Virus genome (UHGV): UHGV-0144530
Strand: one strand, 5' to 3'
Source of the DNA: a virus
Length of the DNA: 17,582 nucleotides
In this document: in pieces, positions 1-17,122 of the stretch
Layout of the letters: every line of letters begins with the position of its first letter
How positions within the stretch are numbered: the stretch's first letter is position 1
Made by a program: the position numbers and the translations under genes
Notes under the pieces: generated by a model
Databases searched by the model: none
Seen by the model: only the letters and a program-made list of their open reading frames with translations
What the model was told of the DNA's origin: nothing

Positions 1-192
1 TCAGGAGCATTTCTGATTAACGCCACCGTTAAGAATCCACCCTTCAACAGCTTCACGAAGGTATGATTTGGGGTGGGTTCTGACTGGCTTCGGAAATCCG
101 TGCCGTTTGGTATAGTTCCAGATTGTCTGACGTGATGAAACACCGAGCTTGTTCATCACTTCTTTCTCAGGAATCAGGCTGGTATCGGTCAT
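1..192 (-). CDS. xis: excisionase-like small DNA-binding protein (Xis/AlpA type)
   Basis: 63 aa ORF with stop at 1-3 and ATG at 192; RBS GGAGA 6 nt upstream; segment RQTIWNYTKRHGFPKPV resembles the lambda Xis / AlpA winged-helix region; sits at the distal end of the leftward operon where xis-int normally lie. Confidence 0.5.
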   Translation of the reverse strand: MTDTSLIPEKEVMNKLGVSSRQTIWNYTKRHGFPKPVRTHPKSYLREAVEGWILNGGVNQKCS

Positions 193-206
193 CTTAACTC
201 TCCAGG

Positions 207-232
207 CAAAAATAAACCGCCATATAGCGGCT
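207..232 (-). terminator. weak intrinsic terminator on minus strand
   Basis: minus-strand hairpin CCGC-tatatg-GCGG followed by a U-rich run TTTATTTTT; lies between the 114 aa ORF and xis. Confidence 0.35.
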
Positions 233-271
233 CTATCAGATATGAACAGGCCTCATCGAGTGTGAGGCGGG

Positions 272-616
272 TTAGTCCTTGCGTAGCTCGCTGATTCTTC
301 TGTAAGTCTCTGGTGCTTTGTTCCCGTACGTCTTCATTTCAGACTTCAACAGCGCGACGAGTGAATCCCATTCGTTGAGGATTCCTTTGAATGCCGGAAC
401 GCGCTTTGCAACCTTGTCGAATGAATCTCTGATTTCTGGAATCTGCTCAACAAGTGCAACGCATCGCCGAAAGTCTGCTGCGTCATGGGGAGCGCCGAAG
501 TGATGACCATAGATATTCTTTTTCAGGCCACATGCGATTGAGGCAAGAGTTGCGCTACTGATGCCGACATCGCCAGTTGATTGCCATTTCAAAACCTTCA
601 TAGCCAAATCTGACAT
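272..616 (-). CDS. hypothetical protein (114 aa)
   Basis: ORF-track frame 272..643 trimmed to the ATG at 616, which has RBS GGAGA 7 nt upstream; no motif recognised. Confidence 0.5.
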   Translation of the reverse strand: MSDLAMKVLKWQSTGDVGISSATLASIACGLKKNIYGHHFGAPHDAADFRRCVALVEQIPEIRDSFDKVAKRVPAFKGILNEWDSLVALLKSEMKTYGNKAPETYRRISELRKD

Positions 617-628
617 TTCTTGTCTCCA

Positions 629-652
629 ATAAAAAACCGCCATCAGGCGGCT
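629..652 (-). terminator. intrinsic terminator on minus strand
   Basis: minus-strand hairpin GCCGCC-tgat-GGCGGT followed by TTTTTTATT; downstream of the zinc-ribbon ORF. Confidence 0.5.
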
Positions 653-716
653 TGGTGTTCTTTCAGTTCTTCAATTCGAATATTGGTTACATTGTTTTCA
701 TATATGAATAAATAAA

Positions 717-896
717 TTAGCTTTTTTCGTTGCCTTCGCGTTCTTTATTAATTTTGACAAACTCGTTTTTACCACGCTCTCCAAATGCGTCTTTAGAGTC
801 GTTGTATCCGCAATCGCAGCACACATAATCATCAGACCATCCACGCATTGTTTTTTCTTTTGCAATATTTCCAGAACCGCATTTTGGACAAGACAT
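717..896 (-). CDS. small zinc-ribbon protein (C4 type, 59 aa)
   Basis: MSCPKCGSGN...YVCCDCGY gives CxxC-(17)-CxDC; strong RBS GGAGG 7 nt upstream of the ATG at 896; the alternative frame 698..937 is rejected. Confidence 0.55.
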   Translation of the reverse strand: MSCPKCGSGNIAKEKTMRGWSDDYVCCDCGYNDSKDAFGERGKNEFVKINKEREGNEKS

Positions 897-992
897 ATCA
901 CTACCTCCAAAGCATGAGAGAGATGACAACGTAACATTGATTGGAGATTAACAATAGATTGCTGATGTAAAAGATATGTATAAGCTTAGCTA

Positions 993-1631
993 TCAAAGAG
1001 GAGGTTCTGGTAGCGGCATCCAGTGGGTTACTTTCGATGCCGGTTCTTCCCCATCGTCAGTAACTGCCCACCATTTGTTTCTCGACCAATCGTAATACCC
1101 TTCGAAGGTATTGCACTCAGTCCAGCCGTAAGACTTACCCCAACACCAAACATACTGTTTATCGTTCGGCATTCGCTCACTACAGCTTATCCAACCATCC
1201 GGAGTTACCGGAGAGTTGCACGATAGCTGGTTCAACTTGTAAGTTTTGCTTACAGGTTCGGCACCATGAAGCATAGCGGCACGACAGGAGTTCCAGCCTC
1301 TCACCTCTGCAATAGCGGCAACAGCATCGACCGCGTACATTTTAAGATGGTTAGGCATTGGTTTTTCTTCAGGTACTACTGGCACTGGAGGGGCGGCATA
1401 AACAGGAATAACGTCCGATTGCTCTTTATTGCTTTCATCCGTTAAAGCCCAGAATAATTTTCCGGCCGGATGTTTGAAAATATAAGCAACTGGCTCTGCT
1501 TCCAGTGATGCCAGCGCAATCCGCGCCAGTTCTTCCGCTTCTTCTGCTGGCAGTACAACGTTGCTATCAGGTCCGTATGTTTCGCGCCACTGCTTGATTG
1601 TCAGTAGTCGCTCTTTGGTAATAGTGATCAT
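993..1631 (-). CDS. DUF551-like phage protein
   Basis: 212 aa; Trp-rich C-terminal region (DGWISCSERMPNDKQYVWCW ... THWMPLPEPP) typical of the DUF551 family common in enterobacterial prophage early regions; start overlaps the upstream stop (ATGA). Confidence 0.55.
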   Translation of the reverse strand: MITITKERLLTIKQWRETYGPDSNVVLPAEEAEELARIALASLEAEPVAYIFKHPAGKLFWALTDESNKEQSDVIPVYAAPPVPVVPEEKPMPNHLKMYAVDAVAAIAEVRGWNSCRAAMLHGAEPVSKTYKLNQLSCNSPVTPDGWISCSERMPNDKQYVWCWGKSYGWTECNTFEGYYDWSRNKWWAVTDDGEEPASKVTHWMPLPEPPL

Positions 1632-2143
1632 GCCGCGTTTCCTTCTTTCTTATTAACAATTACACCGTCATATATTTCATTAAGGTGCCCTCTCAACTCC
1701 ATGCGCCTTAATGCAGATAACATGTAATCGCATTCAACCTGCTTATTTCCAGTAAATGGCTTATCGTCAGGATTACCCCAACAGCAATTACCCTTGGGCC
1801 ACCCATGTACTTTCCGTACTCTTCCGTTAACAACGTGAAGTAATCCCCAGCCAGGTGGTAAATCCTCAATTGAAATAATTCCCGGCTCACTAATAAAGAA
1901 TCGCCAGTCGCCCATTCCAAGAGACGGATTTTTACGAAAACGCTTTTTTCTATCTGCCAACAAGTCAGCACGAGAACACTTCGCCTCTATCAGGCATGAT
2001 GCTGAATTTCTGAATCCCATAGCATCTGGCTGTTCTCCGGTACTGGTTACAGCTATAAAGCGGTCATGAAAACAAACCTTGAACCCGTTGCGCTTAAGGA
2101 ACTTGTACGCAATCTGACAGAGTTCGCGGTGTGTTAGCGCCAT
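1628..2143 (-). CDS. putative PD-(D/E)XK-fold nuclease-like protein (171 aa)
   Basis: start moved to the ATG at 2143 with RBS AAGGAGAG; motif GEQPDAMGF...(12)...LIEAKCS fits a PD-x(n)-ExK nuclease signature; fold assignment is inference. Confidence 0.4.
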   Translation of the reverse strand: MALTHRELCQIAYKFLKRNGFKVCFHDRFIAVTSTGEQPDAMGFRNSASCLIEAKCSRADLLADRKKRFRKNPSLGMGDWRFFISEPGIISIEDLPPGWGLLHVVNGRVRKVHGWPKGNCCWGNPDDKPFTGNKQVECDYMLSALRRMELRGHLNEIYDGVIVNKKEGNAA

Positions 2144-2144
2144 A

Positions 2145-2930
2145 TCACTCTCCTTTGATGCGAATGCCAGTAGCGCGGATTGCATCGATGACTTCAGAAA
2201 CTTTGTATGCCATTACCGTTTGGTAATCATCGTGAAAATCTGTTCGATGAAGCATGCTGCTACGTTCCGGGAGCGTTATTTCCCGAGCATCCAGTTCCTT
2301 AACGCGTTCCTCCAGTTCGTAGACCCTGCATTGTTCTCTATCATCAATCAGATATAACCCAAGACATTCGCTTTCTACCCAACCGCCAAAATCATGATCG
2401 TAACGCTCACATGAAAACTCACCGTCACCGTCCTTTGTTGGAATGGTGTAACTGTCTAATGGGCCACCGTACGTCGGCACATTTCCTAATGTCGGATGCT
2501 CAATCCACATAAAAAATGCACGTCCGGTTATTGGGCAAATATCTGGCCGCCATTGGTTACGAACAGCGTTGGTTTCTGATAATTCTTCAGCGTGTTGTTT
2601 TACTTCCTCAAGCTCAACACGCAGCTTCCCTACCGTTAGCGCAATATCCTCGTTCTCCTGATCGCGGCTTTTGATGTATTGCAGGTTTCTTTCCCGTTCA
2701 TCCAGCAACGCCTGCACTACTTCAGGGTTGAAAGCTGCGATATAACGCGCGTTATTCTCTGCGTTTTCCTGTCCATCAAAGCCGGTCCATTTGATAACGT
2801 CTTCACATCGTTTATCACCGGGTGTATGCACCGCATATGTACCAGTACCCGACGAAATAAATGCGACCCATTCGCCCTGCGTGGCCTGTTTTGCTATCTC
2901 ACGCAGTGCCTGATAGTCAATCTTGCTCAC
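2145..2930 (-). CDS. Ea22-like early accessory protein (tentative)
   Basis: 261 aa; GTG start at 2930 preceded by RBS AAGGAGG; conserved-looking N-terminus [21 protein letters not shown], central coiled-coil and Cys-rich C-terminus, in the ea22 position between the recombination module and xis. Confidence 0.35.
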   Translation of the reverse strand: MSKIDYQALREIAKQATQGEWVAFISSGTGTYAVHTPGDKRCEDVIKWTGFDGQENAENNARYIAAFNPEVVQALLDERERNLQYIKSRDQENEDIALTVGKLRVELEEVKQHAEELSETNAVRNQWRPDICPITGRAFFMWIEHPTLGNVPTYGGPLDSYTIPTKDGDGEFSCERYDHDFGGWVESECLGLYLIDDREQCRVYELEERVKELDAREITLPERSSMLHRTDFHDDYQTVMAYKVSEVIDAIRATGIRIKGE

Positions 2931-3529
2931 TGGTTGCCTCCTTTTCGAAGCTGGGCGGCGATATCTTCGAGAACGCCATCAGAGAATGAGCGGTCAAAAT
3001 CGCCTTCCGGCGCATTAGCCATAAACTCAGTAGAGGTAAGAATCATCCGGGCAATATCCGCGGCGTTCTTCGCAGTATCATCAATAAAACCAGCTTCCCA
3101 GGCAGCCAGCATTCTGTTCGCCACAAAGTAAGCGCCCTCCTTGCGTGCTTCAGTCTTCACTTCAGCCAGGAAAGCATCGGTGGCTGGTGTTTGCGGCATC
3201 CCTCCATCTGTTGCGCAGATATACGCATCAGATATTTCATCCTGCTCGCCATCAAACACGTAGCAACTCTGTGCGATAAATTTATTCAGCCCAGCATTCT
3301 CCGCTGCCAGTGCTGAAAACTTCTCGTGTGCCAACTTAACAGCAGAATCAGCCTGCTTAATTGACTCAATCGCTTTCTGTTGGTCTTCGGACAGAGCTGA
3401 AATCTTGGCCTCCGCTTCAGTAAATTTGCGTACCAGATATTCAGCATTTGTTTCGTTAACCTTTAAATCACATGGGATGCATTTACCTTTCAGAAAACCA
3501 TCCATCTCAATTAGTGACATTTGTTTCAT
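2927..3529 (-). CDS. hypothetical protein (200 aa), coiled-coil rich
   Basis: ATG at 3529 overlaps the stop of the upstream ORF (ATGA coupling); no recognised motif. Confidence 0.45.
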
Positions 3530-5592: not shown

Positions 5593-5725
5593 TTTTGGGA
5601 ACTCCTGGCTGATTAAGTATGTCGATAAGGCGTTTCCATCCATCACGTAATTTACGTGTGATTCGTTCAAGTAAAGATTCGGAAGGGCAGCCAGCAACAG
5701 GCCACCCTGCAATGGCATATTGCAT
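5585..5725 (-). CDS. cIII: CIII, inhibitor of FtsH-mediated CII degradation
   Basis: MQYAIAGWPVAGCPSESLLERITRKLRDGWKRLIDILNQPGVPKNG matches lambda CIII almost residue for residue; RBS AAGGAG; ORF-track frame 5585..5827 trimmed to the ATG at 5725. Confidence 0.8.
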   Translation of the reverse strand: MQYAIAGWPVAGCPSESLLERITRKLRDGWKRLIDILNQPGVPKNG

Positions 5726-5782
5726 GGTGTGCTCCTTATTTATACATAACGAAAAACGCCTCGAGTGAAGCGTTATTGGTAT

Positions 5783-6765: not shown

Positions 6766-7035
6766 TTACCTCGCCGTCAGTTGTTTTGATTTCCGGTAGC
6801 CTGCCGCGTAAATAGCTACGTTTGGCAGGCAAATACTTCCACTGCATTCATCTGCCTTCTTGCAGCGAAGGCTTCCGAGTGATGCTGCTTTATCTGCTCT
6901 GACGCAACCAGAGAGCTTTAGCGCAATTTTTCGTGCCAATCGCTGTTCTTGCATTGCCTGTTCACGTTGAGCCTGTCTGCGTGCTCTGCGGCGATTTCTG
7001 GCGTTATCATCAGCCAGATAAGTAACGATTATCAT
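6766..7035 (-). CDS. N: N-like transcription antiterminator (89 aa)
   Basis: arginine-rich motif NARNRRRARRQAQREQ near the N-terminus; strong RBS GGAGG 5 nt upstream of the ATG at 7035; lies downstream of nutL; ORF-track 6766..7164 is an unsupported in-frame 5' extension. Confidence 0.6.
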   Translation of the reverse strand: MIIVTYLADDNARNRRRARRQAQREQAMQEQRLARKIALKLSGCVRADKAASLGSLRCKKADECSGSICLPNVAIYAAGYRKSKQLTAR

Positions 7036-7465
7036 GTTGACCTCCGATGATTGGCTTTGGTGATTAGGTGGACGGTACTGATCTCCGGCTTGGTTAGTGC
7101 TTCGCCTGGTCATTATCACGCCTAGTGACCCCCTGAGGATCGTCTCCTCGCCAGTGCAGGTCATATCGCATCAGTCTGCGCATTCACCCAATCCCAAAGC
7201 CAACTACTCTTTGACTCACACTCTCGCAGTGAGCGCGCTCATGCCATTGAGTCTCTGCCGCTTCATCGCCGCTGATAACCGGTGCGCGTCTGGCATTCGC
7301 GCTGCTTTACCGGAGCTACTTTTAATATATTGACCCTAACCCGATGCTAAGCAGGCTCGCTCAATGGCGACTCAGGGCAGCATCATTACTGCTGCATTGC
7401 CTTTCGGCTGCGGTCTAACCGCGTTAGTGCACCATTACGGCACCTCCTGTTTGGTTAAACTCAGT

Positions 7466-7507
7466 TCCCGCATTTCGGCGGGACAATCCCATCAATGTTA
7501 AAGAGCC
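7466..7507 (-). promoter_or_regulatory. nutL (boxA plus boxB)
   Basis: minus-strand boxA GGCTCTTTAACA (plus coordinates 7496-7507) followed 12 nt later by hairpin TCCCGC-CGAAAU-GCGGGA (7466-7483); the boxB is identical to that at nutR. Confidence 0.7.
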
Positions 7508-7552
7508 TGCCAATCTGTTCCGTTTGGCTTCCAGCGTCCTGCTGATGGCTTA

Positions 7553-7637
7553 AAGATAACTTAGGTTATAGGTGTGGTCAATAACCTAATTTATATTTTA
7601 TGGTAAATAAGTTATAAGTGATGGATAACAAAGGTAT
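7553..7637 (-). promoter_or_regulatory. OL operators and pL promoter
   Basis: 14 bp palindromes matching ATAAC-N4-GTTAT at 7556-7569 (perfect), 7581-7594 (1 mismatch) and a degenerate copy near 7624-7637; minus-strand -35 TTGACC (7576-7581), 17 bp spacer, -10 TATCTT (7553-7558). Confidence 0.55.
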
Positions 7638-7759
7638 TTTATTTTTGTAAATGTTGCTGATTGATTGGTGTTTGAGGGCTTACGTGCGGGGTGAAGGTGT
7701 TACCTTTGGCTTGATGCTTGTCTATGATGAGGATGGTTGATTGGGTGGTGAACGGCAGG

Positions 7760-7794
7760 AAAAGAAAACCCGGCGCTGAGGCCGGGGGTTTTTA
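7760..7794. terminator. bidirectional intrinsic terminator
   Basis: CCCGGC-gctgag-GCCGGG with an A-run on the left and a T-run on the right, so a U-tract follows the hairpin on either strand; ends the cI-orf98 transcript. Confidence 0.65.
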
Positions 7795-8088
7795 GTCTTT
7801 TCTTTTGCTTAGCATTTCGTCGATTTCTAAGTCAATACGATATTGATCTATTGCTTTTCTCTCGTTTGGGGTTGGTATTTTATACTGTTCAATTAGATCT
7901 GTTGTGTATTTTATTTCATCTAATGTGATTTTTATATCAGAGAGAATCTCTTTTATATCAATTAGATGCTCTTCTTCTTTTGCGCGATTAGAGCTATGTT
8001 CAATCATTTGAGATAGCTTTTTGCTAATGCTTAGCAAAACAAAAAGAATGATGACCAAAACAACAACAAAAACTATCAGAAATTCCAT
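7792..8088 (-). CDS. membrane-anchored coiled-coil protein co-transcribed with cI (98 aa)
   Basis: hydrophobic N-terminal helix EFLIVFVVVLVIILFVLLSI then a charged, heptad-like C-terminal half; strong RBS GGAGGG 4 nt upstream; about 40 nt downstream of the cI stop; strongly AT-rich relative to neighbours. Confidence 0.6.
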   Translation of the reverse strand: MEFLIVFVVVLVIILFVLLSISKKLSQMIEHSSNRAKEEEHLIDIKEILSDIKITLDEIKYTTDLIEQYKIPTPNERKAIDQYRIDLEIDEMLSKRKD

Positions 8089-8128
8089 TATCCCTCCGCA
8101 CTTCCGTAAGTCTTCTTCTGATTATCGG

Positions 8129-8836
8129 TTACCAACTATGAGACGACCAGAATACTCTGCCAATAATCCTTACGGTTTCATGAAATTCATCTCTATCCAT
8201 TACTTCATCCGGGTACTCTTCGCGATTTATTGATCTGATTATCACCGATGTAGGGGTGGCGATTAATGTTTTTACTCGTAACAAATCAGACTGGCAAATA
8301 GCGTAGGTTTTACCATCTCTGATTGTGGTATCTTGCGTGTTAACACCAACAACATCGCCATCGTGAAGCGTTGGTTCCATGCTTTGCCCTACAACCCTAA
8401 CTAGCTTGGCTGATCTTTCTGATACTCCCATCTTTTTCAGATAGTGCTTTCTGAAAACCAAAGAGAACTCCGATGATTCCTCTAGCTCGCAGCTACCGCT
8501 TCCAGCTGAAAGCGAAACGTTAAGAAGAGGCAACGCAACAAACTCGTCATCGTTTCTTTTAATGTCTTCCCATACCACAGCTTTTAAAGATGACTCACGG
8601 ACATTGGATGGTTCTTCATGTGCACCATCCCTCATTTCACCAATACCAGAACTAAGCCATTCAGGACGCACTTTTAAAGCATTGGCTAATTCAACCATCT
8701 TGCGAGATCCGTTTGTTTTACCGGACGACATCTTCTGTATGGCTGGCTGAGATATTCCAACCATGTCAGCAAGCTGTGATTGTGATACCCCTGCTGAGCT
8801 CATGGCTGCATTTAGTCTTTCTGCGAATGTTTTCAT
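8129..8836 (-). CDS. cI: CI-type prophage repressor (HTH plus S24 LexA-like peptidase domain)
   Basis: N-terminal HTH (VSQSQLADMVGISQPAIQKM), Ala-Gly cleavage site in SLSAGSG, catalytic Ser in GQSMEPT and Lys in LRVKTL; ATG at 8836 abuts the operators; ORF-track 8129..8866 begins at an upstream TTG. Confidence 0.85.
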   Translation of the reverse strand: MKTFAERLNAAMSSAGVSQSQLADMVGISQPAIQKMSSGKTNGSRKMVELANALKVRPEWLSSGIGEMRDGAHEEPSNVRESSLKAVVWEDIKRNDDEFVALPLLNVSLSAGSGSCELEESSEFSLVFRKHYLKKMGVSERSAKLVRVVGQSMEPTLHDGDVVGVNTQDTTIRDGKTYAICQSDLLRVKTLIATPTSVIIRSINREEYPDEVMDRDEFHETVRIIGRVFWSSHSW

Positions 8837-8848
8837 ACTCACAAATCT

Positions 8849-8914
8849 ATAACTACGGTTATCCAAAGTAAAATAACAAAGGTTATTGCTATTTTTTATA
8901 ACTTGAGTTATCTT
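8849..8914. promoter_or_regulatory. OR operators with divergent pRM and pR
   Basis: three perfect 14 bp palindromes ATAAC-N4-GTTAT at 8849-8862, 8873-8886 and 8898-8911, centres 24-25 bp apart; plus-strand -35 TTGCTA (8886-8891), 17 bp spacer, -10 TATCTT (8909-8914). Confidence 0.65.
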
Positions 8915-9600: not shown

Positions 9601-9741
9601 AAACAACTCAGTCCTTACCAGGACAAAATTCACAAACACATACTACGTGATCGCTTCCTGTCCAGCTTCAAGCAGCCTGGTCGATTCCGGGCTGAGTTGG
9701 AAAAAGTGAAGCTGATGCAGAAGGAGAAAGGTCATGAGTAA
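9595..9741 (+). CDS. small ORF (48 aa) using the lambda O translation-initiation region
   Basis: CAGGAGTCATTATGACAAA is the same as the lambda O RBS and start, but the protein diverges after Met-Thr; overlaps the start of the O-like gene. Confidence 0.35.
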
Positions 9742-10594
9742 TCTTGCAACCGTAACACATTTAAGGCCCTCACAACGGCCTGTGGAGCGTCGTGTGGCAG
9801 AAGTTGAAGATGGTTATACCCGTCTTGCAAATGCCCTGTATGAAGAGCTTATCGGCGCAGATTTAACAAAAAATCAGAGCAAGGTTGCCCACGCCATATG
9901 CCGTAAAACATACGGATACGGTAAAAAGATGGATCGCATCTCTGATAGTCAGTTAGCTCAAATTACCAGGCTGCCAAGACAGAAGGTAAACAAGGCCAAG
10001 AATGAGCTTATCGCGATGAAGGTAATCCTTCGCGAAGGCCAGCAAATCGGGCCTAACAAGAACATCGAGGAATGGCAAATCGAAGGGTGTCACTACTCTG
10101 GTGATAATGTCACTGCATTGGTGACAAAAAGTGTCACCAAAACGGTGACAGCGCTGTCACCAAAACAGGGACACACAAAAGAAACTATTACAAAAGAAAA
10201 AAGAAATAATAAAAACACTATGTCCGAAAGTGTTCGGACGGAGTGTGAAAAATCATCTGACCGTCACGAAGAAACCGACAAGGCATTCGAGGAAATATTC
10301 TGGTGTGCAGGCATGCGGAAAGCCGGGAAAAAAAACGCAGCTTCGGCATTCAGAACACAGTTCAGGGAATGGCGTAAAACTACCAGGGGTACGGCAAGCG
10401 AGTTTGCCACGATGCTGGCAGAAGACATCGCATGCAGGAATGGTAAGCAGTTCGGATTCGACAGGTTGTTACCATCGAGCTACTTGAACGGTCAGCGCTG
10501 GAACGACGAAAAGCCAGAAACCATTCAACCACAATCCAAACCATCATCCGCAATCACCGTATCGAAAACTGGCTACGTGTTTTTCGACAGGTGA
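9734..10594 (+). CDS. O: replication initiator, lambda O family, with a divergent C-terminal domain
   Basis: N-terminal half aligns with lambda O (ADLTKxQxKV...RKTYG...MDRIxDSQL...GPNKNIxEW; linker [15 protein letters not shown]); the C-terminal 100 aa are unrelated; RBS AAGGAGAAAGG. Confidence 0.8.
10086..10225. other. origin of replication: iteron array plus AT-rich region inside the O-like gene
   Basis: inverted-repeat iterons on a GTGACA/TGTCAC core (GGTGATAATGTCAC 10100-10113, GGTGACAAAAAGTGTCACC 10120-10138, GGTGACAGCGCTGTCACC 10144-10161), then an AT-rich stretch that closely parallels the lambda ori AT-rich element. Confidence 0.7.
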
Positions 10595-10597
10595 ACC

Positions 10598-10705
10598 ATG
10601 AAATCAAAAATCAAATCGCTACTGGTCGCTGGTTATAACCACGGCTGGTTAAGTATTTCGTTTGTCGATTTCTGGTTTAAAAATCTCAATCTGAGGGAAT
10701 CATGA
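10598..10705 (+). CDS. candidate small ORF (35 aa) coupled to the primase-helicase
   Basis: ATG at 10598 follows GGTGA and the O stop; its stop overlaps the primase-helicase start (ATGA); below the ORF-track cut-off. Confidence 0.25.
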   Translation: MKSKIKSLLVAGYNHGWLSISFVDFWFKNLNLRES

Positions 10706-12582
10706 GGCCAAGTGAACTTAGCGACCTGCTTTGGGCGCAGGTTGACAGGGTGGCTCCGCACCTGTTGCCAAATGGCAAGAAAGAGGGGCATGAGTGGGTT
10801 GCCGGTAACGTCAACGGTGACAAGGGAAACAGCCTTAAGGTCAACCTTAGCGGCAAGAAAAAATGGGCTGATTTCGCTGAGGGAGACGGCGGTGACATGC
10901 TTGATTTGTGGATGGCATGTCGTGGAATTAACCTGCATCAGGCTATGCAGGAAGCGAAAGCATTTCTCGGTATCAAGGATGACGATCACCATTTCGATGC
11001 CAGACGTGAGAAAAAATTCTCCAGACCTGATCGCAAGAAAATCGCCCGCTACGTTACCAGAACAGAATCCCATCTTGAGTACCTGCAATCGCGTGGCATA
11101 TCGCCAGAAATCGTAAAGCGCTACGAGGTTGTCAGCGGCAAGGTGTGGAATGGAGAGCGGGAACTGGATGCTCTGGTGATTCCGTACAAACGCGATGGTG
11201 AGTTGTTGCAGGTCAAGCGAATCAGCACTGAGCGCCCGGACGGGAAGAAAGTCATTATGGCAGAAGGTGATTGCGAACCTTGCCTGTTCGGATGGCAGGC
11301 TCTGGACGCTGGCGTGAGGGCGGTTGTACTTTGCGAAGGCGAAATTGATTGTATGAGCTATGCGCAATACGGCATCTCGGCGTTATCCGTACCGTTTGGT
11401 GGAGGGAAAGGCGCTAAGCAACAGTGGATTGAGTTTGAGTATCACAACCTCGACAGGTTTGAGGAAATATTCATCTCGATGGACGTTGATGATGTTGGTC
11501 GTGAAGCCGCAAGGGAAATCGCAAGCCGACTCGGTGAACATCGTTGCCGTCTTGTTACTCTGCCGTGCAAAGACATCAACGAATGCCTGATGAACGGTGT
11601 TACCGAGGATGAAATCTGGCAGTACATCGGCACGGCATCCTACTTCGATCCTGAAGAACTCTACAGCGCGCGAGAGTTTTACCAGGACACTATCAACGCT
11701 TTCTACGGCAAGCAGCAGTATCTGTTTAATCCACCGTGGGAATCTCTGGCAGATAAATTCCAGTTCCGTGAGGCAGAGTTGACGCTGGTCAATGGTGTGA
11801 ACGGTCACGGAAAAACGGAGGTTGTCGGGCATATGGCACTTGAGGCAATGCGTCAGGGTGTGAAGACGTGCATCGCGTCACTTGAGCTGAAGCCTGGTAT
11901 TCTCCTTAAGCGCCTTACCCGTCAGGCGACGTGCTGCAAGATGCCGCCAGTGCTGGAAATTGACTCTGCATTTAAATTTTATGACGAAAGACTTTGGGTG
12001 TTTGGCCTGACCGGAACGGCGAAAGCCGACAGGCTGATCGAAATATTCGACTACGCTCGCCGCCGATACGGGATCCAGTTATTCATCATCGACAGCCTGA
12101 TGAAATGTGGCATAGGCGACGATGACTATAACGGGCAGAAGGCGTTTGTTGACTCGATTTGCGACTTCAAAAACAAAACAAACTCCCACGTCATTCTCGT
12201 TACTCACTCGCGAAAAGGAGACAGCGAAGAAAAACCAACCGGGAAAATGGACGTAAAAGGCTCTGGAGCGATAACAGACCTGACAGACAACCTTTTCATC
12301 ATCTGGCGTAACAAGGCTCGCGAGAGAGCGTTACAGAGAGTTCAGAGTGGTGAAAAGATGTCAGAGAAGGACGAACAGCTACTGGCATCTCCGGCATCTG
12401 TTTTGATGCTTGAAAAACAACGTAACGGCGAAGGTTGGGAAGGTGGTGTCCCGTTGTTCCTTGACGAGCAATCGCACCAGTTCCTGCAACTTGAATCAGG
12501 ATCGCCATATAGCTACATCGCCAATATGCCGAAATCGGAATATGACGAGGCGTGGCGACAGGAAAACGTGACGGAGTATTAA
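10702..12582 (+). CDS. bifunctional DNA primase-helicase (TOPRIM plus DnaB-like RecA-fold helicase)
   Basis: 626 aa; TOPRIM-like acidic segments (VVLCEGEIDCMSY, ISMDVDDVGRE) in the N-terminal half; helicase Walker A GVNGHGKT and Walker B LFIIDSL in the C-terminal half; occupies the slot of lambda P. Confidence 0.75.
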   Translation: MRPSELSDLLWAQVDRVAPHLLPNGKKEGHEWVAGNVNGDKGNSLKVNLSGKKKWADFAEGDGGDMLDLWMACRGINLHQAMQEAKAFLGIKDDDHHFDARREKKFSRPDRKKIARYVTRTESHLEYLQSRGISPEIVKRYEVVSGKVWNGERELDALVIPYKRDGELLQVKRISTERPDGKKVIMAEGDCEPCLFGWQALDAGVRAVVLCEGEIDCMSYAQYGISALSVPFGGGKGAKQQWIEFEYHNLDRFEEIFISMDVDDVGREAAREIASRLGEHRCRLVTLPCKDINECLMNGVTEDEIWQYIGTASYFDPEELYSAREFYQDTINAFYGKQQYLFNPPWESLADKFQFREAELTLVNGVNGHGKTEVVGHMALEAMRQGVKTCIASLELKPGILLKRLTRQATCCKMPPVLEIDSAFKFYDERLWVFGLTGTAKADRLIEIFDYARRRYGIQLFIIDSLMKCGIGDDDYNGQKAFVDSICDFKNKTNSHVILVTHSRKGDSEEKPTGKMDVKGSGAITDLTDNLFIIWRNKARERALQRVQSGEKMSEKDEQLLASPASVLMLEKQRNGEGWEGGVPLFLDEQSHQFLQLESGSPYSYIANMPKSEYDEAWRQENVTEY

Positions 12583-12687
12583 ATGACAATCTACATCACT
12601 GAGCTAATAGCAGGGTTATCGTTACTAATGGTTCTTACTGTATATATTATTAAGTATATTCTTTATGCGAATAAAAAAAACAATTGA
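12583..12687 (+). CDS. candidate single-TM micro-protein (34 aa)
   Basis: MTIYITELIAGLSLLMVLTVYIIKYILYANKKNN; the ATG directly follows the primase-helicase stop, with GGAG 8 nt upstream; AT-rich; its 3' end overlaps the HNH start across an A8 tract. Confidence 0.3.
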   Translation: MTIYITELIAGLSLLMVLTVYIIKYILYANKKNN

Positions 12688-13276
12688 TCACGATGAGCTT
12701 CTGTCAACATTATCATATGACTCAGAAACAGGAATATTTAAATGGCTAAAAACAAATTCAGTAGTAAGAGTAAAAGGTAGTATTGCTGGAGGTGTTAGTG
12801 GTGGTTATATATGCATTAGCATAAATAATGTTTTGTATTATGCGCATAGGCTTGCTTGGTTCTATGTATACAAAAAATGGCCTCCTAAGTTTATTGATCA
12901 TGTAAATGGGAACAGACTTGACAATAGGATTTCAAATCTAAGACTGGCAACAGAGGAGCAGAATGCAAGAAACATTGTAGGTAATAGGTTAAACACATCC
13001 GGTGCGATTGGAGTGTCTTGGGATAAGACAACTGGCAGGTGGAAGTCTTATGTTGGTTATAAAAATAAGACAATATCGTTAGGGTATTTCGATAGCAAAG
13101 AAGATGCAGCATTCATAGCAGCACTAGCAAGAAAGAAACTATATGGAACTTATGCGAGTAAAGCACTTAATTGCGAGCATGAGCTTTTATCTCAATTTAA
13201 TAATGATGAGGATAAACTTGCGGAATATCTTAAGGAAAAATCTAAAAGGACTCGAAAGCGTGTTAAAAAAAGATAA
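12665..13276 (+). CDS. HNH endonuclease with C-terminal AP2 DNA-binding domain (homing-endonuclease-like)
   Basis: HNH_3-type motif YAHRLAWFYVYKKWPPKFIDHVNGNRLDNRISNLRLATEEQNARN followed by an AP2-like segment SGAIGVSWDKTTGRWKSYVGYKNKTISLGYFDSKEDAAFIA; AT-rich codon usage; no obvious RBS. Confidence 0.75.
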   Translation: MRIKKTIDHDELLSTLSYDSETGIFKWLKTNSVVRVKGSIAGGVSGGYICISINNVLYYAHRLAWFYVYKKWPPKFIDHVNGNRLDNRISNLRLATEEQNARNIVGNRLNTSGAIGVSWDKTTGRWKSYVGYKNKTISLGYFDSKEDAAFIAALARKKLYGTYASKALNCEHELLSQFNNDEDKLAEYLKEKSKRTRKRVKKR

Positions 13277-13277
13277 A

Positions 13278-13308
13278 GGCCTGCTGGTAATCGCAGGTCT
13301 TTTTATTT
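13278..13308 (+). terminator. intrinsic terminator after the HNH gene
   Basis: CCTGC-tggtaatc-GCAGG followed by TCTTTTTATTT. Confidence 0.5.
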
Positions 13309-13323
13309 GGGGGAGAGTAAATC

Positions 13324-13530
13324 GTGGCTGAGTTAATTTTCTCTGCATTGAGGCTTCTCGGTGCTATGTGGATGGTGGCGACGTTCATTGTGATTGCTGG
13401 CTGTTTTGTCCGGTTGGTAGGCGAAGGTAAAGACCTGGTGGGTGTGCTTTTCGGTAGCATTCTCCTGTGGGTGATTATCGGTGTTGCGCCTGTTGCTGTA
13501 GCAAAAATGGCGTGGCGTTTTGTTAGTTGA
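13324..13530 (+). CDS. small two-helix membrane protein (68 aa)
   Basis: GTG start with RBS GGGGGAGAG 6 nt upstream; two hydrophobic segments (MWMVATFIVIAGCFV and VLFGSILLWVIIGVAPVAVA); lies in the slot lambda ren occupies. Confidence 0.5.
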   Translation: MAELIFSALRLLGAMWMVATFIVIAGCFVRLVGEGKDLVGVLFGSILLWVIIGVAPVAVAKMAWRFVS

Positions 13531-13537
13531 GGTGACA

Positions 13538-13948
13538 ATGAAGCAAACAATCTTCCTCCGAACTAAGCAACAACAGCAAGCTGCAATAAATGCCATCCTC
13601 GCAACACCACTCGATAAAGACAAGCCAGTCACCATCCGCATTACTGACTACAAGCGCAACCTTGACCAGAACGCAAAATTTCACGCGATGCTGGCGGATA
13701 TCGCACGTCAGGTTCAATGGTGCGGCAAATGGTTAAAACCAGAACAATGGAAGGTTTTGTTGATTAGCGGTCATGCAGTGGCAACAAAGCAGGAAGCTGA
13801 TGTTTTGTCCGGCCTTGAAGGCGAATACGTCAACATTCGCGAAAGTAGCGCGCAGATGAGTGTGAAGCGTATGGCAAGTCTGATTGAGTACACGACAGCA
13901 TGGGCTATTGGTCAGGGCGTCAGATTTACCGACAGGAGGTACGAATGA
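13538..13948 (+). CDS. ninB: NinB-family recombination protein
   Basis: first gene of a lambda-like nin cluster; similar to lambda NinB in length and in motifs such as LDQNxK and the run of aromatic and basic residues; RBS GAGGTGA; ORF-track TTG start 13520 replaced by the ATG at 13538. Confidence 0.65.
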
Positions 13949-14127: not shown

Positions 14128-14294
14128 TTGACCCAAATCGAAGTTACGAACAAGGAAGTGTCGAGCGAGCTTTAACGTGCGCTAACTGCGGTCAGAAGCT
14201 GCATGTGCTGGAAGTTCACGTGTGTGAGCACTGCTGCGCAGAACTGATGAGCGATCCGAATAGCTCGATGCACGAGGAAGAAGACGATGGCTAA
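14124..14294 (+). CDS. ninF: NinF
   Basis: 56 aa from GTG 14124 (overlapping the ninE stop, GTGA); Cys-rich sequence ...[29 protein letters not shown]... recognised as lambda NinF; below the ORF-track cut-off. Confidence 0.65.
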
Positions 14295-14898
14295 ACCAGC
14301 GCGAAGACGATGTAAAAACGATGAATGTCGGGAATGGTTTCACCCTGCATTCGCCAATCAGTGGTGGTGCTCTCCAGAGTGTGGAACCAAGATAGCACTC
14401 GAACGACGAAGCAAAGAACGCGAAAAAGCGGAAAAGGCAGCAGAGAAGAAACGACGACGAGAGGAGCAGAAACAGAAAGATAAACTGAAAATTCGAAAAC
14501 TCGCCTTAAAGCCCCGCAGTTACTGGATTAAACAAGCCCAACAAGCTGTAAACGCCTTCATCAGAGAAAGAGACCGCGACTTACCATGTATCTCGTGCGG
14601 AACGCTCACGTCTGCTCAGTGGGATGCCGGACATTACCGGACAACTGCTGCGGCACCTCAACTCCGATTTGATGAACGCAATATTCACAAGCAATGCGTG
14701 GTGTGCAACCAGCACAAAAGCGGAAATCTCGTTCCGTATCGCGTCGAACTGATTAGCCGTATCGGGCAGGAAGCAGTAGACGAAATCGAATCAAACCATA
14801 GCCGCCATCGCTGGACTGTCGAAGAGTGCAGGGCCATCAAGGCGGAGTATCAGCAGAAACTCAAAGACCTGCGAAATAGCAGAAGTGAGGCCGCATGA
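14287..14898 (+). CDS. ninG: NinG (Rap) recombination-associated protein
   Basis: 203 aa; Cys-rich N-terminus and a central lysine/glutamate-rich segment; recognised as near-identical to lambda NinG. Confidence 0.85.
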
Positions 14899-15101: not shown

Positions 15102-15744
15102 TGGCAGCAAATACCGAAATATTTGGGTAGTTGGCGATCTGCACGGATGCTACACGAACCTGATGAAAAAACTGGAGACGATAGGATTCGACACCAAAAA
15201 AGACCTGCTTATCTCGGTGGGCGATTTGGTTGATCGCGGTACAGAGAACGTCGAATGCCTGGAATTAATCACATTCCCCTGGTTCAGAGCTGTACGTGGA
15301 AACCATGAGCAAATGATGATTGATGGCTTATCAGAGCGTGGAAACGTCAATCACTGGCTGCTTAATGGCGGTGGCTGGTTCTTTAATCTCGATTACGACA
15401 AAGAAATTCTGGCTAAAGCTCTTGCCCATAAAGCAGATGAACTTCCGTTAATCATCGAACTGGTGAGTAAAGGAAAAAAATATGTCATCTGCCACGCCGA
15501 TTATCCTTGTGATAAATACGAGTTTGGAAAGCCAGTTGATCATCAGCAGGTAATCTGGAACCGCGAACGAATCAGCAACTCACAAGACGGGATCGTGAAA
15601 GAAATCAAAGGCGCGGACACGTTCATCTTTGGTCATACGCCAGCAGTGAAACCACTCAAGTTTGCCAACCAGATGTATATCGATACCGGCGCAGTGTTCT
15701 GCGGAAACCTCACATTGATTCAGGTACAGGGAGAAGGCGCATGA
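15079..15744 (+). CDS. ninI: NinI serine/threonine protein phosphatase
   Basis: metallophosphatase motifs GDLHGC, GDLVDRG and GNHE; near-identical to lambda NinI; ATG at 15079 preferred over the ORF-track GTG at 15070. Confidence 0.85.
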
Positions 15745-16364
15745 GACTCGAAAGCGTAGCTAAATTTCATTCGCCAAAAAGCCCGATGATGAGCGACTCA
15801 CCACGGGCTACTGCTTCTGACTCTCTTTCCGGTACTGATGTGATGGCTGCTATGGGGATGGCGCAATCACAAGCCGGATTCGGAATGGCTGCATTCTGTG
15901 GTAAGCACGAACTCAGCCAGAATGACAAACAAAAGGCTATCAACTATCTGATGCAATTTGCACACAAGGTATCGGGGAAATACCGTGGCGTGGCAAAGCT
16001 TGAAGGAAATACTAAGGCAAAGGTACTGCAAGTGCTCGCAACATTCGCTTATGCGGATTATTGCCGTAGTGCCGCTACGCCGGGCGCAAGATGCAGAGAT
16101 TGCCACGGTACAGGCCGTGCGGTAGATATAGCAAAAACAGAGCAGTGGGGGAGAGTTGTTGAGAAAGAGTGCGGAAGATGCAAAGGCGTCGGCTATTCCA
16201 GGATGCCAGCAAGCGCCGCATATCGCGCTGTAACGATGCTAATCCCAAACCTTACCCAACCCACCTGGTCACGCACTGTTAAGCCGCTGTATGACGCTCT
16301 GGTGGTGCAATGCCACAAAGAAGAGTCAATCGCAGACAACATTTTGAATGCGGTCACACGTTAG
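15741..16364 (+). CDS. Q: Q late-gene antiterminator
   Basis: 207 aa, lambda Q type, with the zinc-binding Cys cluster CRDCHGTG...CGRCKG; ATGA overlap with ninI. Confidence 0.9.
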
Positions 16365-16778: not shown

Positions 16779-16801
16779 CCCCTTATTGGGGGTAAGACAT
16801 G
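16779..16801 (+). promoter_or_regulatory. sdi-like stem-loop and dual-start translational control region of S
   Basis: CCCC-ttatt-GGGGG hairpin overlapping the Shine-Dalgarno sequence just upstream of ATG-AAG-ATG (Met1-Lys2-Met3). Confidence 0.6.
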
Positions 16802-17122
16802 AAGATGCCAGAAAAAAATGACCTGTTAGCCGCCATTCTCGCGGCAAAGGAACAAGGCATCGGGGCAATCCTTGCGTTTGCAATGGCGTACCTTCGCGGC
16901 AGATATAATGGCGGTGCGTTTACAAAAACAGTAATCGACGCAACGATGTGCGCCATTATCGCCTGGTTCATTCGTGATCTTCTCGACCTCGCCGGACTAA
17001 GTAGCAATCTCGCTTATATAACGAGCGTGTTCATCGGCTACATCGGTACTGACTCGATTGGTTCGCTTATCAAACGCTTCGCTGCTAAAAAAGCCGGAGT
17101 AGAAGATGGTGGAAATCAATAA
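16799..17122 (+). CDS. S: holin S (class I, dual-start S107/S105)
   Basis: 107 aa beginning MKMPEK, three hydrophobic segments and a charged C-terminus; lambda S type. Confidence 0.95.

Follow-up and report, generated by a model that had tools for sequence, protein, structure and literature searches.

In the T4-type phages, the Seg and Mob homing endonuclease genes (HEGs) are small, lie between conserved genes or at their ends, have a patchy distribution and spread via break repair with co-conversion of the flanks. I-HmuI of the Bacillus phage SPO1 (PDB 1U3E) is an intron-encoded nicking enzyme with an HNH motif, an N-terminal beta-sheet region and C-terminal helical/HTH modules. The combination of HNH and AP2 domains is presented, in the part of Barth et al. 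(2023, PMC10448857) that draws on Magnani et al. (2004), as a HEG family found in phages, cyanobacteria and protists, and the same part states that AP2 domains prefer GC-rich DNA. The IPA-HNH HEGs of the Vibrio phage ICP1 (PMC10448857) belong to this architecture, with the HNH domain in the N-terminal and the AP2 domain in the C-terminal part; they are free-standing, are located at genetic-exchange boundaries between related phages and include frameshifted copies.

Here we describe an island in the virus genome UHGV-0144530, of which a stretch of 17,582 nucleotides (the window) was analysed, that shares all these traits with the ICP1 genes, including the order of the two domains. It differs in that its protein has a canonical HNH_3 domain, whereas those of ICP1 are too divergent for this Pfam family, and in that its host is a temperate lambdoid phage while ICP1 is lytic. 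With I-HmuI the 203-aa protein of the island shares the N-terminal beta-sheet region and the HNH motif at only ~20% identity, but it is free-standing, carries an AP2 domain and a basic tail instead of the helical modules, and its nicking activity is putative. It resembles the T4-type genes in being a small endonuclease gene that is patchy among relatives, although the Seg enzymes are of the GIY-YIG type, in phages of another lifestyle, and the island lies inside a tiny gene beside a terminator. Taken together, we conclude with moderate confidence that the island is a free-standing HEG that probably targets the uninterrupted ninA/tR2 sequence. Its presence or absence at one precise site, an insert that is mostly ORF with foreign composition, and near-identical copies in unrelated backgrounds are the properties that lead to this reading. 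The features of the locus are collected in Table 1.

Table 1. Features of the island and its surroundings, in positions of the window.
Feature	Position	Strand	Description	Basis
N gene	6766..7164			
Primase-helicase gene	10702..12582	+	626 aa, Toprim/DnaB-like; upstream backbone	Pfam Toprim_2 (E 3.5e-12), AAA_25, DnaB_C
5' part of resident ninA	12583..12614	+	codons 1-11; backbone, not insert	matches lambda, HK75 and 720R6 empty sites
Chimeric ninA' frame	12583..12687	+	34 codons, MTIYITELIAGLSLLMVLTVYIIKYILYANKKNN*; made by the insertion	read from sequence
Left repeat copy	12607..12614	.	ATAGCAGG, imperfect 7-8 nt direct repeat of target ATAACAGG	junction alignment
Inserted element	12615..13279	+	665 bp, GC 0.34	empty-site comparison with HK75, 720R6 and lambda
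5' leader of element	12615..12664	+	50 nt	sequence
HNH-AP2 endonuclease gene	12665..13276	+	203 aa	Pfam, phrog, predicted structure
Right repeat copy	13273..13279	.	ATAAAGG, imperfect direct repeat	junction alignment, sequence
tR2 intrinsic terminator of lambda	13277..13309	+	backbone; stem AGGCCTGC/GCAGGTCT with one G-U pair, then T tract	
3' part of resident ninA	13280..13331	+	…LLVIAGLFIWGRVNRG*	empty-site comparison
68-aa protein gene, phrog_1165	13324..13530	+	function not assigned; downstream backbone	profile match
NinB	13520..13948		after the phrog_1165 gene; NinG also downstream of the island	

A preliminary description of this DNA, made from the sequence alone, had reported a self-contained insertion of low GC between the replication genes and the nin cluster, and in this it was right. 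The segment is missing from most relatives, it lies downstream of a primase/helicase with Toprim and DnaB_C domains and upstream of NinB and NinG, and its GC content contrasts with ~0.49 in the flanks (0.31-0.38 across the island versus 0.49-0.53 on either side). In fact, no other 665-bp segment of the 17.6 kb has so low a GC content, those outside the insert having a mean of 0.462 (sd 0.033, minimum 0.358), so that a segment present at uniform GC in all relatives is not what was found. The extent given for the island, 12583-13310, does hold the features described for it, but the comparison with empty sites assigns a smaller part of it to the inserted DNA, 612 of whose 665 bp are taken up by the ORF. 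The junction was identical whether HK75, 720R6 or lambda served as the empty site, and is ambiguous only within a shared AGG.

This comparison showed that the element splits ninA, a gene of 26-27 codons, at the 5' foot of the lambda tR2 hairpin (…CTAATAACAGG^CCTGCTGG…). We use the gene name ninA as in Li et al. (2016, PMC4824070) and in the records of 933W, Nil2, P22 and mEp506. When the two parts of the gene in the window are joined, they reconstitute the lambda ninA/tR2 linker with 2-3 substitutions. The TAA stop of the primase-helicase gene directly abuts the ninA ATG, and the TGA that ends the 3' part shares bases with the GTG at which the next gene starts; the same primase-helicase gene is found without the island in vB_EcoP-720R6, as is the phrog_1165 gene in HK75. 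The insertion fuses the beginning of ninA to a frame (ninA') that crosses the start codon of the endonuclease and stops 20 nt past it, and that may have a role in translational coupling. The element is bordered by an imperfect direct repeat, the right copy of which includes the endonuclease stop codon (TAA, 13274-13276); TB354 carries ATAACAGG at the position of the left copy. This repeat of 7-8 nt is not a homing signature.

The terminator at the end of the island had been taken as its own. It is the backbone tR2, since the island-free lambda, HK75 and 720R6 have the same sequence as the hairpin at 13277-13302, which in lambda lies at 40,6xx between ren and ninB and differs from the window in a C-to-T change at 13298; databases label the hairpin of these phages as the terminator or the tR2 terminator, and it is annotated as a terminator in the records of HK75, 933W, Nil2 and P22. 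The contribution of the insert is limited to its terminal A's, which lengthen the tR2 stem to 10 pairs, from 13275, and the resulting terminator-like hairpin and T run (13275..13302) fold with -15.3 kcal/mol (z -3.2). Similarly, the island was said to fill the position of lambda ren, yet the insertion is downstream of that position, inside ninA, and ren and the island coexist in PA28 and in E. coli TB354. Three points in the reading of the locus are thus corrected, a change of modest importance: its terminator is that of lambda, tR2, the insertion interrupts ninA, and ren has not been displaced.

The preliminary description had also recognised in the 203-aa protein the HNH_3 plus AP2 architecture of free-standing phage homing endonucleases, and we agree, the HNH catalytic residues being intact. 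Pfam HNH_3 (PF13392) matches aa 58-102 over its full profile (1-46; E 8e-16, 57.9 bits, cut-off 24.8), and AP2 (PF00847) matches aa 114-161 with E 1e-7 and 32.6 bits against a cut-off of 33.3; PF00847 is included in the precomputed Pfam list of the 99%-identical cluster P0001. Furthermore, phrog_99 ('HNH endonuclease') matches with E 3e-72 and phmmer found a match to the AP2 repeats of WRINKLED1 (E 0.0015), while an NCBIfam search with the endonuclease gave no match. The protein consists of the N-terminal beta-sheet region, the HNH motif (D78, H79, N91, N100 and N103), the AP2-like domain (aa ~114-163), and a C-terminal helix with a basic tail that is unique to this protein. In the alignment the counterparts of D78-H79 and N100 in I-HmuI are D74-H75 and N96, so that the absence of catalytic residues, which would have spoken against an endonuclease, was not observed. 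In I-HmuI the active-site residues reportedly act as the catalytic Asp-His general base and a metal-binding Asn. Among 63 homologues D78, H79, N87, N91, R93 and N103 do not vary, and conservation reaches at least 90% at N81 and N100.

The AlphaFold (AF2) model of the protein has a pLDDT of 90. In a Foldseek comparison it matched I-HmuI (1U3E) with a probability of 1.00 over 106 columns (rmsd 3.6), with an E-value no better than 0.026 owing to the two-domain query, and the model has the beta-beta-alpha-metal fold together with the N-terminal beta-sheet DNA-contact region. The AP2 fold appears in it as a three-stranded sheet (117-120, 125-132 and 135-142) on one helix (145-163), with Foldseek matches to 7ET4/7ET5 (probability 1.00, 26-30% identity) and 1GCC (probability 0.97, rmsd 2.2). 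According to this prediction the protein joins an N-terminal half that is similar to the I-HmuI nicking endonuclease to a C-terminal half formed by an AP2-type DNA-binding domain. A terminase-associated HNH protein of the HK97 gp74 type was rejected by position alone, as the gene belongs to the early-right operon, where it follows the replication genes and precedes the nin genes. The dN/dS ratio of ~0.27 reveals purifying selection, and this value and the fully conserved catalytic residues indicate that the protein is still under selection. One of the 10 copies of the element carries a frameshift, which fits the life cycle of a HEG.

Regarding expression, a promoter scan found no sigma-70-like site on the + strand between 12000 and 13900 (a consensus scan, which a weak promoter could escape), and the gene therefore does not have a moron architecture. 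The element would then be transcribed from pR along with the replication genes. Inspection of the 50-nt leader found no GG-containing Shine-Dalgarno sequence, nor was there any significant RNA structure in it masking the start codon (z +1.0). Because of the missing Shine-Dalgarno sequence and the location of the start codon inside the ninA' frame, the endonuclease is probably translated weakly. An Rfam scan of the window had a sole match, the cIII thermoregulator, which lies elsewhere than the island.

Of 5426 E. coli genomes, at least 1884 have the intact ninA/tR2 linker and 135 the occupied one; the corresponding numbers of phage records are 371 and 19. Counted as sites, these genomes hold 161 occupied and about 3000 empty copies of ninA. 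The ten copies of the element fall into three haplotypes that are at most 2.5% apart, each of them preceded, depending on the copy, by one of two to four different genes (primase-helicase, ren, DnaB-like helicase or ORFs of 88-89 aa). The copy of TB354 differs from the window at 6 nt in 738 with both flanks unrelated, and both flanks can be unrelated in copies that differ by 0-2 nt (TB354 versus the window). Such near-identical copies in unrelated backgrounds suggest lateral spread, and are also compatible with plain recombination in the linker. The element is of a known kind and occurs also in Shiga-toxin phages, and an identical protein has already been annotated: the copies of TB354 and 20AR0300, identical in protein, are listed as WP_077070034.1, 'HNH endonuclease', while the gene is a 'putative endonuclease' in HK022 (NP_597900) and a 'homing endonuclease' in the PA28 GenBank record (YP_009601910). 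These copies (HK022, PA28 and WP_077070034.1) show 97.6-100% nucleotide identity, lie at the same site between the same two halves of ninA, and do not differ in anything of substance from the one in the window. None of these records mentions where the insertion lies, that it splits ninA or that the terminator is tR2, and a search of one literature library on lambdoid or Stx phages found no characterisation of this endonuclease.

How could a free-standing HEG spread at this site? During lytic growth, another lambdoid phage that is co-resident or co-infecting would offer an uninterrupted ninA/tR2 sequence to which the enzyme would bind, with the GC-rich stem of tR2 as a plausible contact for the AP2 domain, and near which it would nick or cut. 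The phage recombination functions would then repair the break by copying the element from the HEG-carrying genome, for which they could use ~32 nt of conserved ninA sequence on the left and 40-50 nt on the right. A carrier would be immune because the insertion splits the target site. This immunity cannot rest on the flanking SNPs, as these are not fixed in the occupied sites: G12610 and T13298, considered as markers unique to occupied alleles, were rejected because neither is restricted to carriers, position 12610 being the canonical A in the carrier TB354 and position 13298 a C in most carriers, with T also in the empty sites of LR-50 and MEI005. We tentatively propose, as a possible but rather doubtful extension, that the endonuclease is actively homing into this linker, needing no more than the ~32 nt and 40-50 nt of flanking homology, and that each event could thereby reassort the adjoining modules; the linker is the most conserved replication/nin junction of lambdoid phages and is intact in more than one third of the complete E. 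coli genomes. If true, the HEG would be a driver of lambdoid mosaicism at the replication/nin boundary, and its translation, by ending at the foot of tR2, would incidentally weaken the terminator.

The distribution has to be weighed against a simpler explanation, in which the gene rides along as a passive passenger, or as a retired HEG that still encodes an HNH-AP2 protein and has ceased to home, and a 735-bp cassette of ninA and the HEG moves only by ordinary or Red-type homologous recombination in the conserved linker. The breakpoints of mosaicism relative to the window, at 12582/3 and 13317-13335, coincide with both ends of ninA in occupied and empty relatives alike; ninA is thus itself a mosaic junction even without the element, and ordinary homologous recombination could yield the same distribution. 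An alternative tR2 hairpin allele has the same start nucleotide in mEp506 and IME10, and the frameshifted copy also speaks for a passenger. Moreover, the occupancy is low (~5%) despite a haplotype divergence of up to 2.5%, which argues against efficient homing or for a cost. Nevertheless, we consider this explanation unlikely, since it does not agree with the selection acting on the protein and its fully conserved catalytic residues, and since near-identical copies with both flanks unrelated require two crossovers, within ~32 and 40 nt, an outcome that a break directed to this site would make more likely.

Two other roles seem to us less probable still. The nuclease could be accessory or exclusion cargo that helps the prophage or the host by attacking competing phages or other invading DNA, as ren or other nearby cargo might, and does not promote its own spread. 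This is suggested by its place in the variable stretch that separates the replication genes from the nin genes (home of ren, Lar, DUF7301 and other small accessory genes) and by the HEG-derived nucleases that serve in conflicts between phages and their satellites (Barth et al. 2023, PMC10448857). Such a role is quite improbable, given that the element has a minimal footprint, interrupts a resident gene and is decayed in one copy, and that a gene downstream of pR with no promoter-like site of its own should be silent in the lysogen. The earlier idea of a hotspot for defence cargo found no backing either: no defence model matched, and PADLOC gave only a weak match, 'HEase homing endonuclease' (E 1e-3). 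Alternatively, the protein could be mainly a DNA-binding regulator, with nuclease activity being secondary, acting by its AP2 domain at the GC-rich tR2 or by its translation, which would alter the read-through into nin and Q. AP2 domains do regulate transcription in the phage CasPR proteins (bioRxiv 10.64898/2026.02.23.707548). In lambda, where ninA is uninterrupted, tR2 lies 30 bp past the ninA AUG and 16 bp ahead of its stop (Li et al. 2016, PMC4824070). The same study found that in vivo hardly any termination is left at tR2 when translation runs to a stop codon a few bp before it; the endonuclease stop codon overlaps the foot of the tR2 stem. However, the family shows no variation in its HNH active-site residues, unexpected for a pure DNA binder, and N antitermination already overrides tR2 during lytic growth, which makes this role very improbable.

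The locus now offers nucleotide-exact empty and occupied sites for an HNH-AP2 endonuclease that HK022, a standard laboratory phage, naturally carries, and homing by a HEG of a temperate phage into one of the best-studied terminators becomes a testable idea. If the enzyme is active, it would be an example of a nuclease at a lambdoid module boundary and a possible contributor to mosaicism.

Finally, three further observations on this site have other explanations. MS 196-1 could appear to have a co-conversion tract around the element, but its high identity spans the entire upstream primase-helicase and breaks at the ninA stop, a normal mosaic joint at a gene boundary. mEp506 and IME10, considered as a second type of insertion, share with the linker no more than its left 32 nt and carry instead the alternative terminator hairpin allele, which in mEp506 begins at the same nucleotide as tR2 in the window. 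The match to the Stx2 phage 1717, which starts at window position 12614, was discarded as independent evidence for the left end because it is a coincidence: in this phage ISEc8 is inserted inside the leader of the element, with an 8-bp target duplication (GGTTATCG).

Profile searches identified the window as the early region of a lambdoid prophage, in which the endonuclease ORF lies between the genes for a primase-helicase and NinB. The GC content falls to 0.31-0.38 over this ORF, against 0.49-0.53 on both sides, and the 665-bp insert that carries it (GC 0.34) is the lowest among all 665-bp windows of the 17.6 kb. The ORF with its HNH_3 and AP2 domains, the GC dip and a hairpin with a T run 3' of the ORF were all found, confirming what the preliminary description had observed here (Pfam, GC scan, hairpin search).

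Coordinates of the features in the window
Feature	Position	Strand	Remark
Lambda_thermo (cIII thermoregulator)	5680-5738	-	Rfam, 88.5 bits
N	6766..7164	-	
AT-rich trough	7400-8465		GC 0.36-0.39
ORF in trough	7792..8088	-	98 aa
cI-like repressor	8129..8866	-	
cro and cII			present, lambdoid early region
O-like initiator	9734..10594		
Toprim/DnaB-like primase-helicase	10702..12582	+	626 aa
ninA, 5' part	12583-12614		
Chimeric ninA' frame	12583..12687		
Inserted element	12615..13279		665 bp
Endonuclease ORF	12665..13276	+	203 aa; stop codon 13274-13276
ORF running into 3' ninA	13143..13331	+	62 codons
C-terminal extension of endonuclease	13160-13273		aa ~166-203
Hairpin and T run (tR2)	13275..13302		
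ninA, 3' part	13280-13331		
NinB	13520..13948		
NinG	14287..14898		
NinI-like phosphatase			
Q	15741..16364		
Holin	16799..17122		

BLAST of the region against relatives showed that the island is absent from phages HK75 and vB_EcoP-720R6, the latter carrying the same primase-helicase as the window. In both, window 12583-12614 is joined directly to 13273/13280 onward, so that the empty site reads ATGACCATCTACATCACTGAGCTAATAACAGG immediately followed by CCTGCTGGTAATCGCAGGCCTTTTTATTTGGGGGAGAG…, and the same stretch is found in lambda, between ren and ninB. The inserted DNA therefore comprises a 612-bp ORF and a 50-bp AT-rich leader. Because the target (ATAACAGG) is imperfectly repeated over 7-8 nt at the two ends of the element (ATAGCAGG … ATAAAGG), the junction is uncertain by ~3 nt.

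The element does not interrupt plain spacer but the gene ninA (26-27 codons), and it enters at the 5' foot of the stem of tR2, the intrinsic terminator within ninA. According to Li et al. 2016 (PMC4824070), 30 bp separate the NinA start from tR2, and the NinA stop follows 16 bp after tR2. Both ninA and a terminator are annotated at this place in the GenBank records of 933W, Nil2 (which names it tR2), P22, Sf101, and mEp506. The preliminary description had the island ending in its own terminator; since tR2 lies inside ninA, the hairpin is that of the backbone. In the window it has a 10-bp stem with one G-U pair and a free energy of -15.3 kcal/mol, compared to -16.8 in lambda. Across relatives, ninA is a 26-32-codon hydrophobic ORF with the terminator embedded (lambda piece L007 1068-1148; mEp506 piece L018 2501-2599), start/stop-coupled to its neighbours on both sides: in lambda its start codon and the ren stop overlap (ATGA), as do its TGA and the ninB ATG, and in the window its ATG directly abuts the TAA of the primase-helicase. 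Phages mEp506 and IME10 have a different hairpin (GGGCTAtttacacaGTAGCCC) starting at the same nucleotide as the insertion, and these alleles keep the ninA frame and a similar hydrophobic peptide (…GAIYTVALFYWIK…), suggesting that peptide and terminator are both under selection. The 62-codon ORF, whose start lies within the endonuclease gene in a different frame and which continues in frame into 3' ninA (…GLLVIAGLFIWGRVNRG*), is the only way in which the ninA C-terminus could still be translated, and is probably meaningless.

In the 203-aa protein, Pfam assigned HNH_3 to aa 58-102 (E 8e-16, 57.9 bits) and AP2 to aa 114-161 (E 1e-7; 32.6 bits, just below the 33.3 cut-off), and PHROGs gave phrog_99, 'HNH endonuclease' (E 3e-72). 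A search of 5.8 billion proteins returned 1783 relatives at E <=0.001, most of them of 160-280 aa and the same HNH_3 (+AP2) architecture; the 90% cluster of our protein has 521 members. Y18, G23, H61-W65, D78, H79, N87, N91, R93, N103, and G116 are invariant in an alignment of 63 sequences. By phmmer, D78-H79 and N100 pair with D74-H75 and N96 of I-HmuI, the closest characterised enzyme, where these residues reportedly act as general base and metal ligands. The AlphaFold2 model (mean pLDDT 90.1) matches I-HmuI (1U3E) in its N-terminal half (probability 1.00, 106 columns, rmsd 3.6) and plant AP2 domains over residues ~114-163 (7ET4/7ET5, probability 1.00; 1GCC, probability 0.97, rmsd 2.2). The last 35-40 residues, a predicted helix (pLDDT 53-85) with the basic tail KRTRKRVKKR, are not present in the other 62 homologues of the alignment.

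With a criterion of >=80% of an 84-nt query, the intact ninA/tR2 linker was found in at least 1884 of 5426 complete E. coli genomes (~3000 places) and in 371 phage records; the occupied site was found in 135 of the 5426 (161 places) and in 19 phage records (HK022, PA28, 06-3462, SH2026Stx1, phi330, and several Stx2 phages). Ten aligned copies fall into three haplotypes diverging by <=2.5%, each preceded in different carriers by several unrelated genes: the primase-helicase (window, E. coli MS 196-1), ren (phage PA28, E. coli TB354), P22 gp12-type DnaB-like helicases (HK022, ES3), an HK97 gp55-type helicase (phage 1717), or 88-89-aa ORFs (Stx2_16002, ECP19-798, 20AR0300). As ren and the island stand side by side in PA28 and TB354, the proposal that the island fills the ren position does not hold. 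The genes 3' of ninA vary likewise, and homology to the window stops at 12582/3 and 13317-13335, where ninA starts and ends, so that the unit seen to move in nature is the element together with ninA. Carriers are not uniform for the two flanking substitutions of the window, G12610 and T13298, and the latter occurs in empty sites too. Among the ten copies dN/dS is ~0.27, a value resting on at most 7 synonymous and 7 non-synonymous differences. The protein is identical to those of TB354 and 20AR0300 (RefSeq WP_077070034.1, 'HNH endonuclease'), and the MS 196-1 copy is disrupted at codon 6 by a 1-bp insertion and listed as a pseudogene.

The 88-89-aa ORFs are variable cargo upstream of ninA, at the position of ren; that of the Stx2a phage Stx2_16002 (~88 aa, piece L006 2585-2851) lies between the same primase-helicase and ninA with an ATGA overlap with ninA, and ECP19-798 and 20AR0300 have a similar 89-aa ORF. 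In the Stx2 phage 1717 (pieces L005 1-2000 and L008 877-951), ISEc8 sits within the 50-nt endonuclease leader (window equivalent 12614-12621) with an 8-bp target duplication, GGTTATCG, 0-8 nt from the left end of the element, and cuts the endonuclease gene off from upstream transcription.

Judged from its sequence, the island has the hallmarks of a free-standing homing endonuclease gene (HEG) and probably is one: its active-site residues are intact, its footprint is minimal and its base composition foreign; it sits at one precise point of a highly conserved sequence; and its near-identical copies, patchily distributed over unrelated backbones, are mostly under purifying selection and occasionally decayed. 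HEGs combining HNH and AP2 have been described as a family (Magnani et al. 2004, cited in Barth et al. 2023, PMC10448857). Alternatively, the island could be a passive cassette spread by ordinary recombination alone, because ninA is itself a mosaic joint: breakpoints cluster at its ends in carriers and non-carriers alike, and the alternative hairpin of mEp506 and IME10 begins at the very same nucleotide as the insertion; the low occupancy, ~5%, would also fit a weak or retired HEG. We nevertheless consider such purely passive spread rather unlikely. That the island is defence or exclusion cargo seems quite improbable, as no defence model matches it, no promoter was detected for it and it interrupts a resident gene, and a regulatory role for the protein is more improbable still, its invariant catalytic residues speaking against a purely regulatory function.

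As a homing endonuclease, the protein would probably be expressed along with the replication genes but not from the repressed prophage, since a promoter scan returned no promoter-like site for its gene, which belongs to the pR operon, ahead of tR2. Its translation is probably weak or coupled, given that no Shine-Dalgarno precedes the start codon and that the chimeric ninA' frame crosses this codon and stops 20 nt later. The likely target would be an uninterrupted ninA/tR2 sequence in a second lambdoid genome sharing the cell, where a nick or break repaired from the carrier would spread the element, the conserved ninA halves (~32 nt and 40-50 nt) serving as repair homology. Such lengths are within the range of Red-type recombination, as known from recombineering. 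The carrier would be immune because the insertion splits its own site. The AP2 domain could plausibly contact the GC-rich tR2 stem beside the insertion point, since AP2 domains are described as favouring GC-rich DNA (Barth et al. 2023, PMC10448857). Furthermore, the endonuclease stop codon overlaps the foot of the tR2 stem, and tR2 is almost fully repressed by a translated stop codon a few bp upstream (Li et al. 2016, PMC4824070), so that translating the endonuclease may, as a side effect, lower termination.

Elements of this kind are known, and the identical protein already bears an annotation. The closest described family is that of the HNH-AP2 HEGs, from which none of our tests indicated a departure, and the nearest database entries hold this very gene, in HK022 (cited as 'putative endonuclease' in the phage 1717 record), PA28 ('homing endonuclease' in GenBank), and RefSeq. 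A limited literature search found no publication on this particular endonuclease, and one may exist elsewhere. What our comparisons add is the nucleotide-exact insertion site, its location within ninA at the foot of tR2, and the two corrections, on the terminator and on the ren position.

Other HEG-like genes were seen nearby in relatives. The MS 196-1 prophage holds, besides the frameshifted ninA-site copy, a second paralogous HNH-AP2-type gene after ninF (piece L011 3242-3742), and in ES3 and ECP19-798 ninB is followed by a gene with a NUMOD4 domain, pointing to several HEG-like genes in lambdoid nin regions. The MS 196-1 paralogue is 42% identical to P0004, a chimeric endonuclease from the metagenomic Logan contig SRR10380363_203 (piece L016 3918-4520), whose left junction and first ~65 aa are nearly identical to the window gene and the rest only ~40% identical. 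Directly after its gene come rusA, ninH, and Q, and ninB-ninG are missing, which looks like recombination of two paralogous HNH-AP2 genes with deletion of the nin genes between them.

Elsewhere in the window, the second AT-rich trough, between N and the cI-like repressor, occupies the position of rexAB in lambda; its 98-aa ORF, an N-terminal hydrophobic segment followed by a charged helical remainder, had no match in Pfam, PADLOC, or NCBIfam. Lambda_thermo was the only Rfam family over threshold. Finally, the primase-helicase gave a weak PADLOC match (E 8e-11) to a DRT model, in its DnaG-like part; the most likely cause is the Toprim/DnaG domain common to both, and not a defence function.
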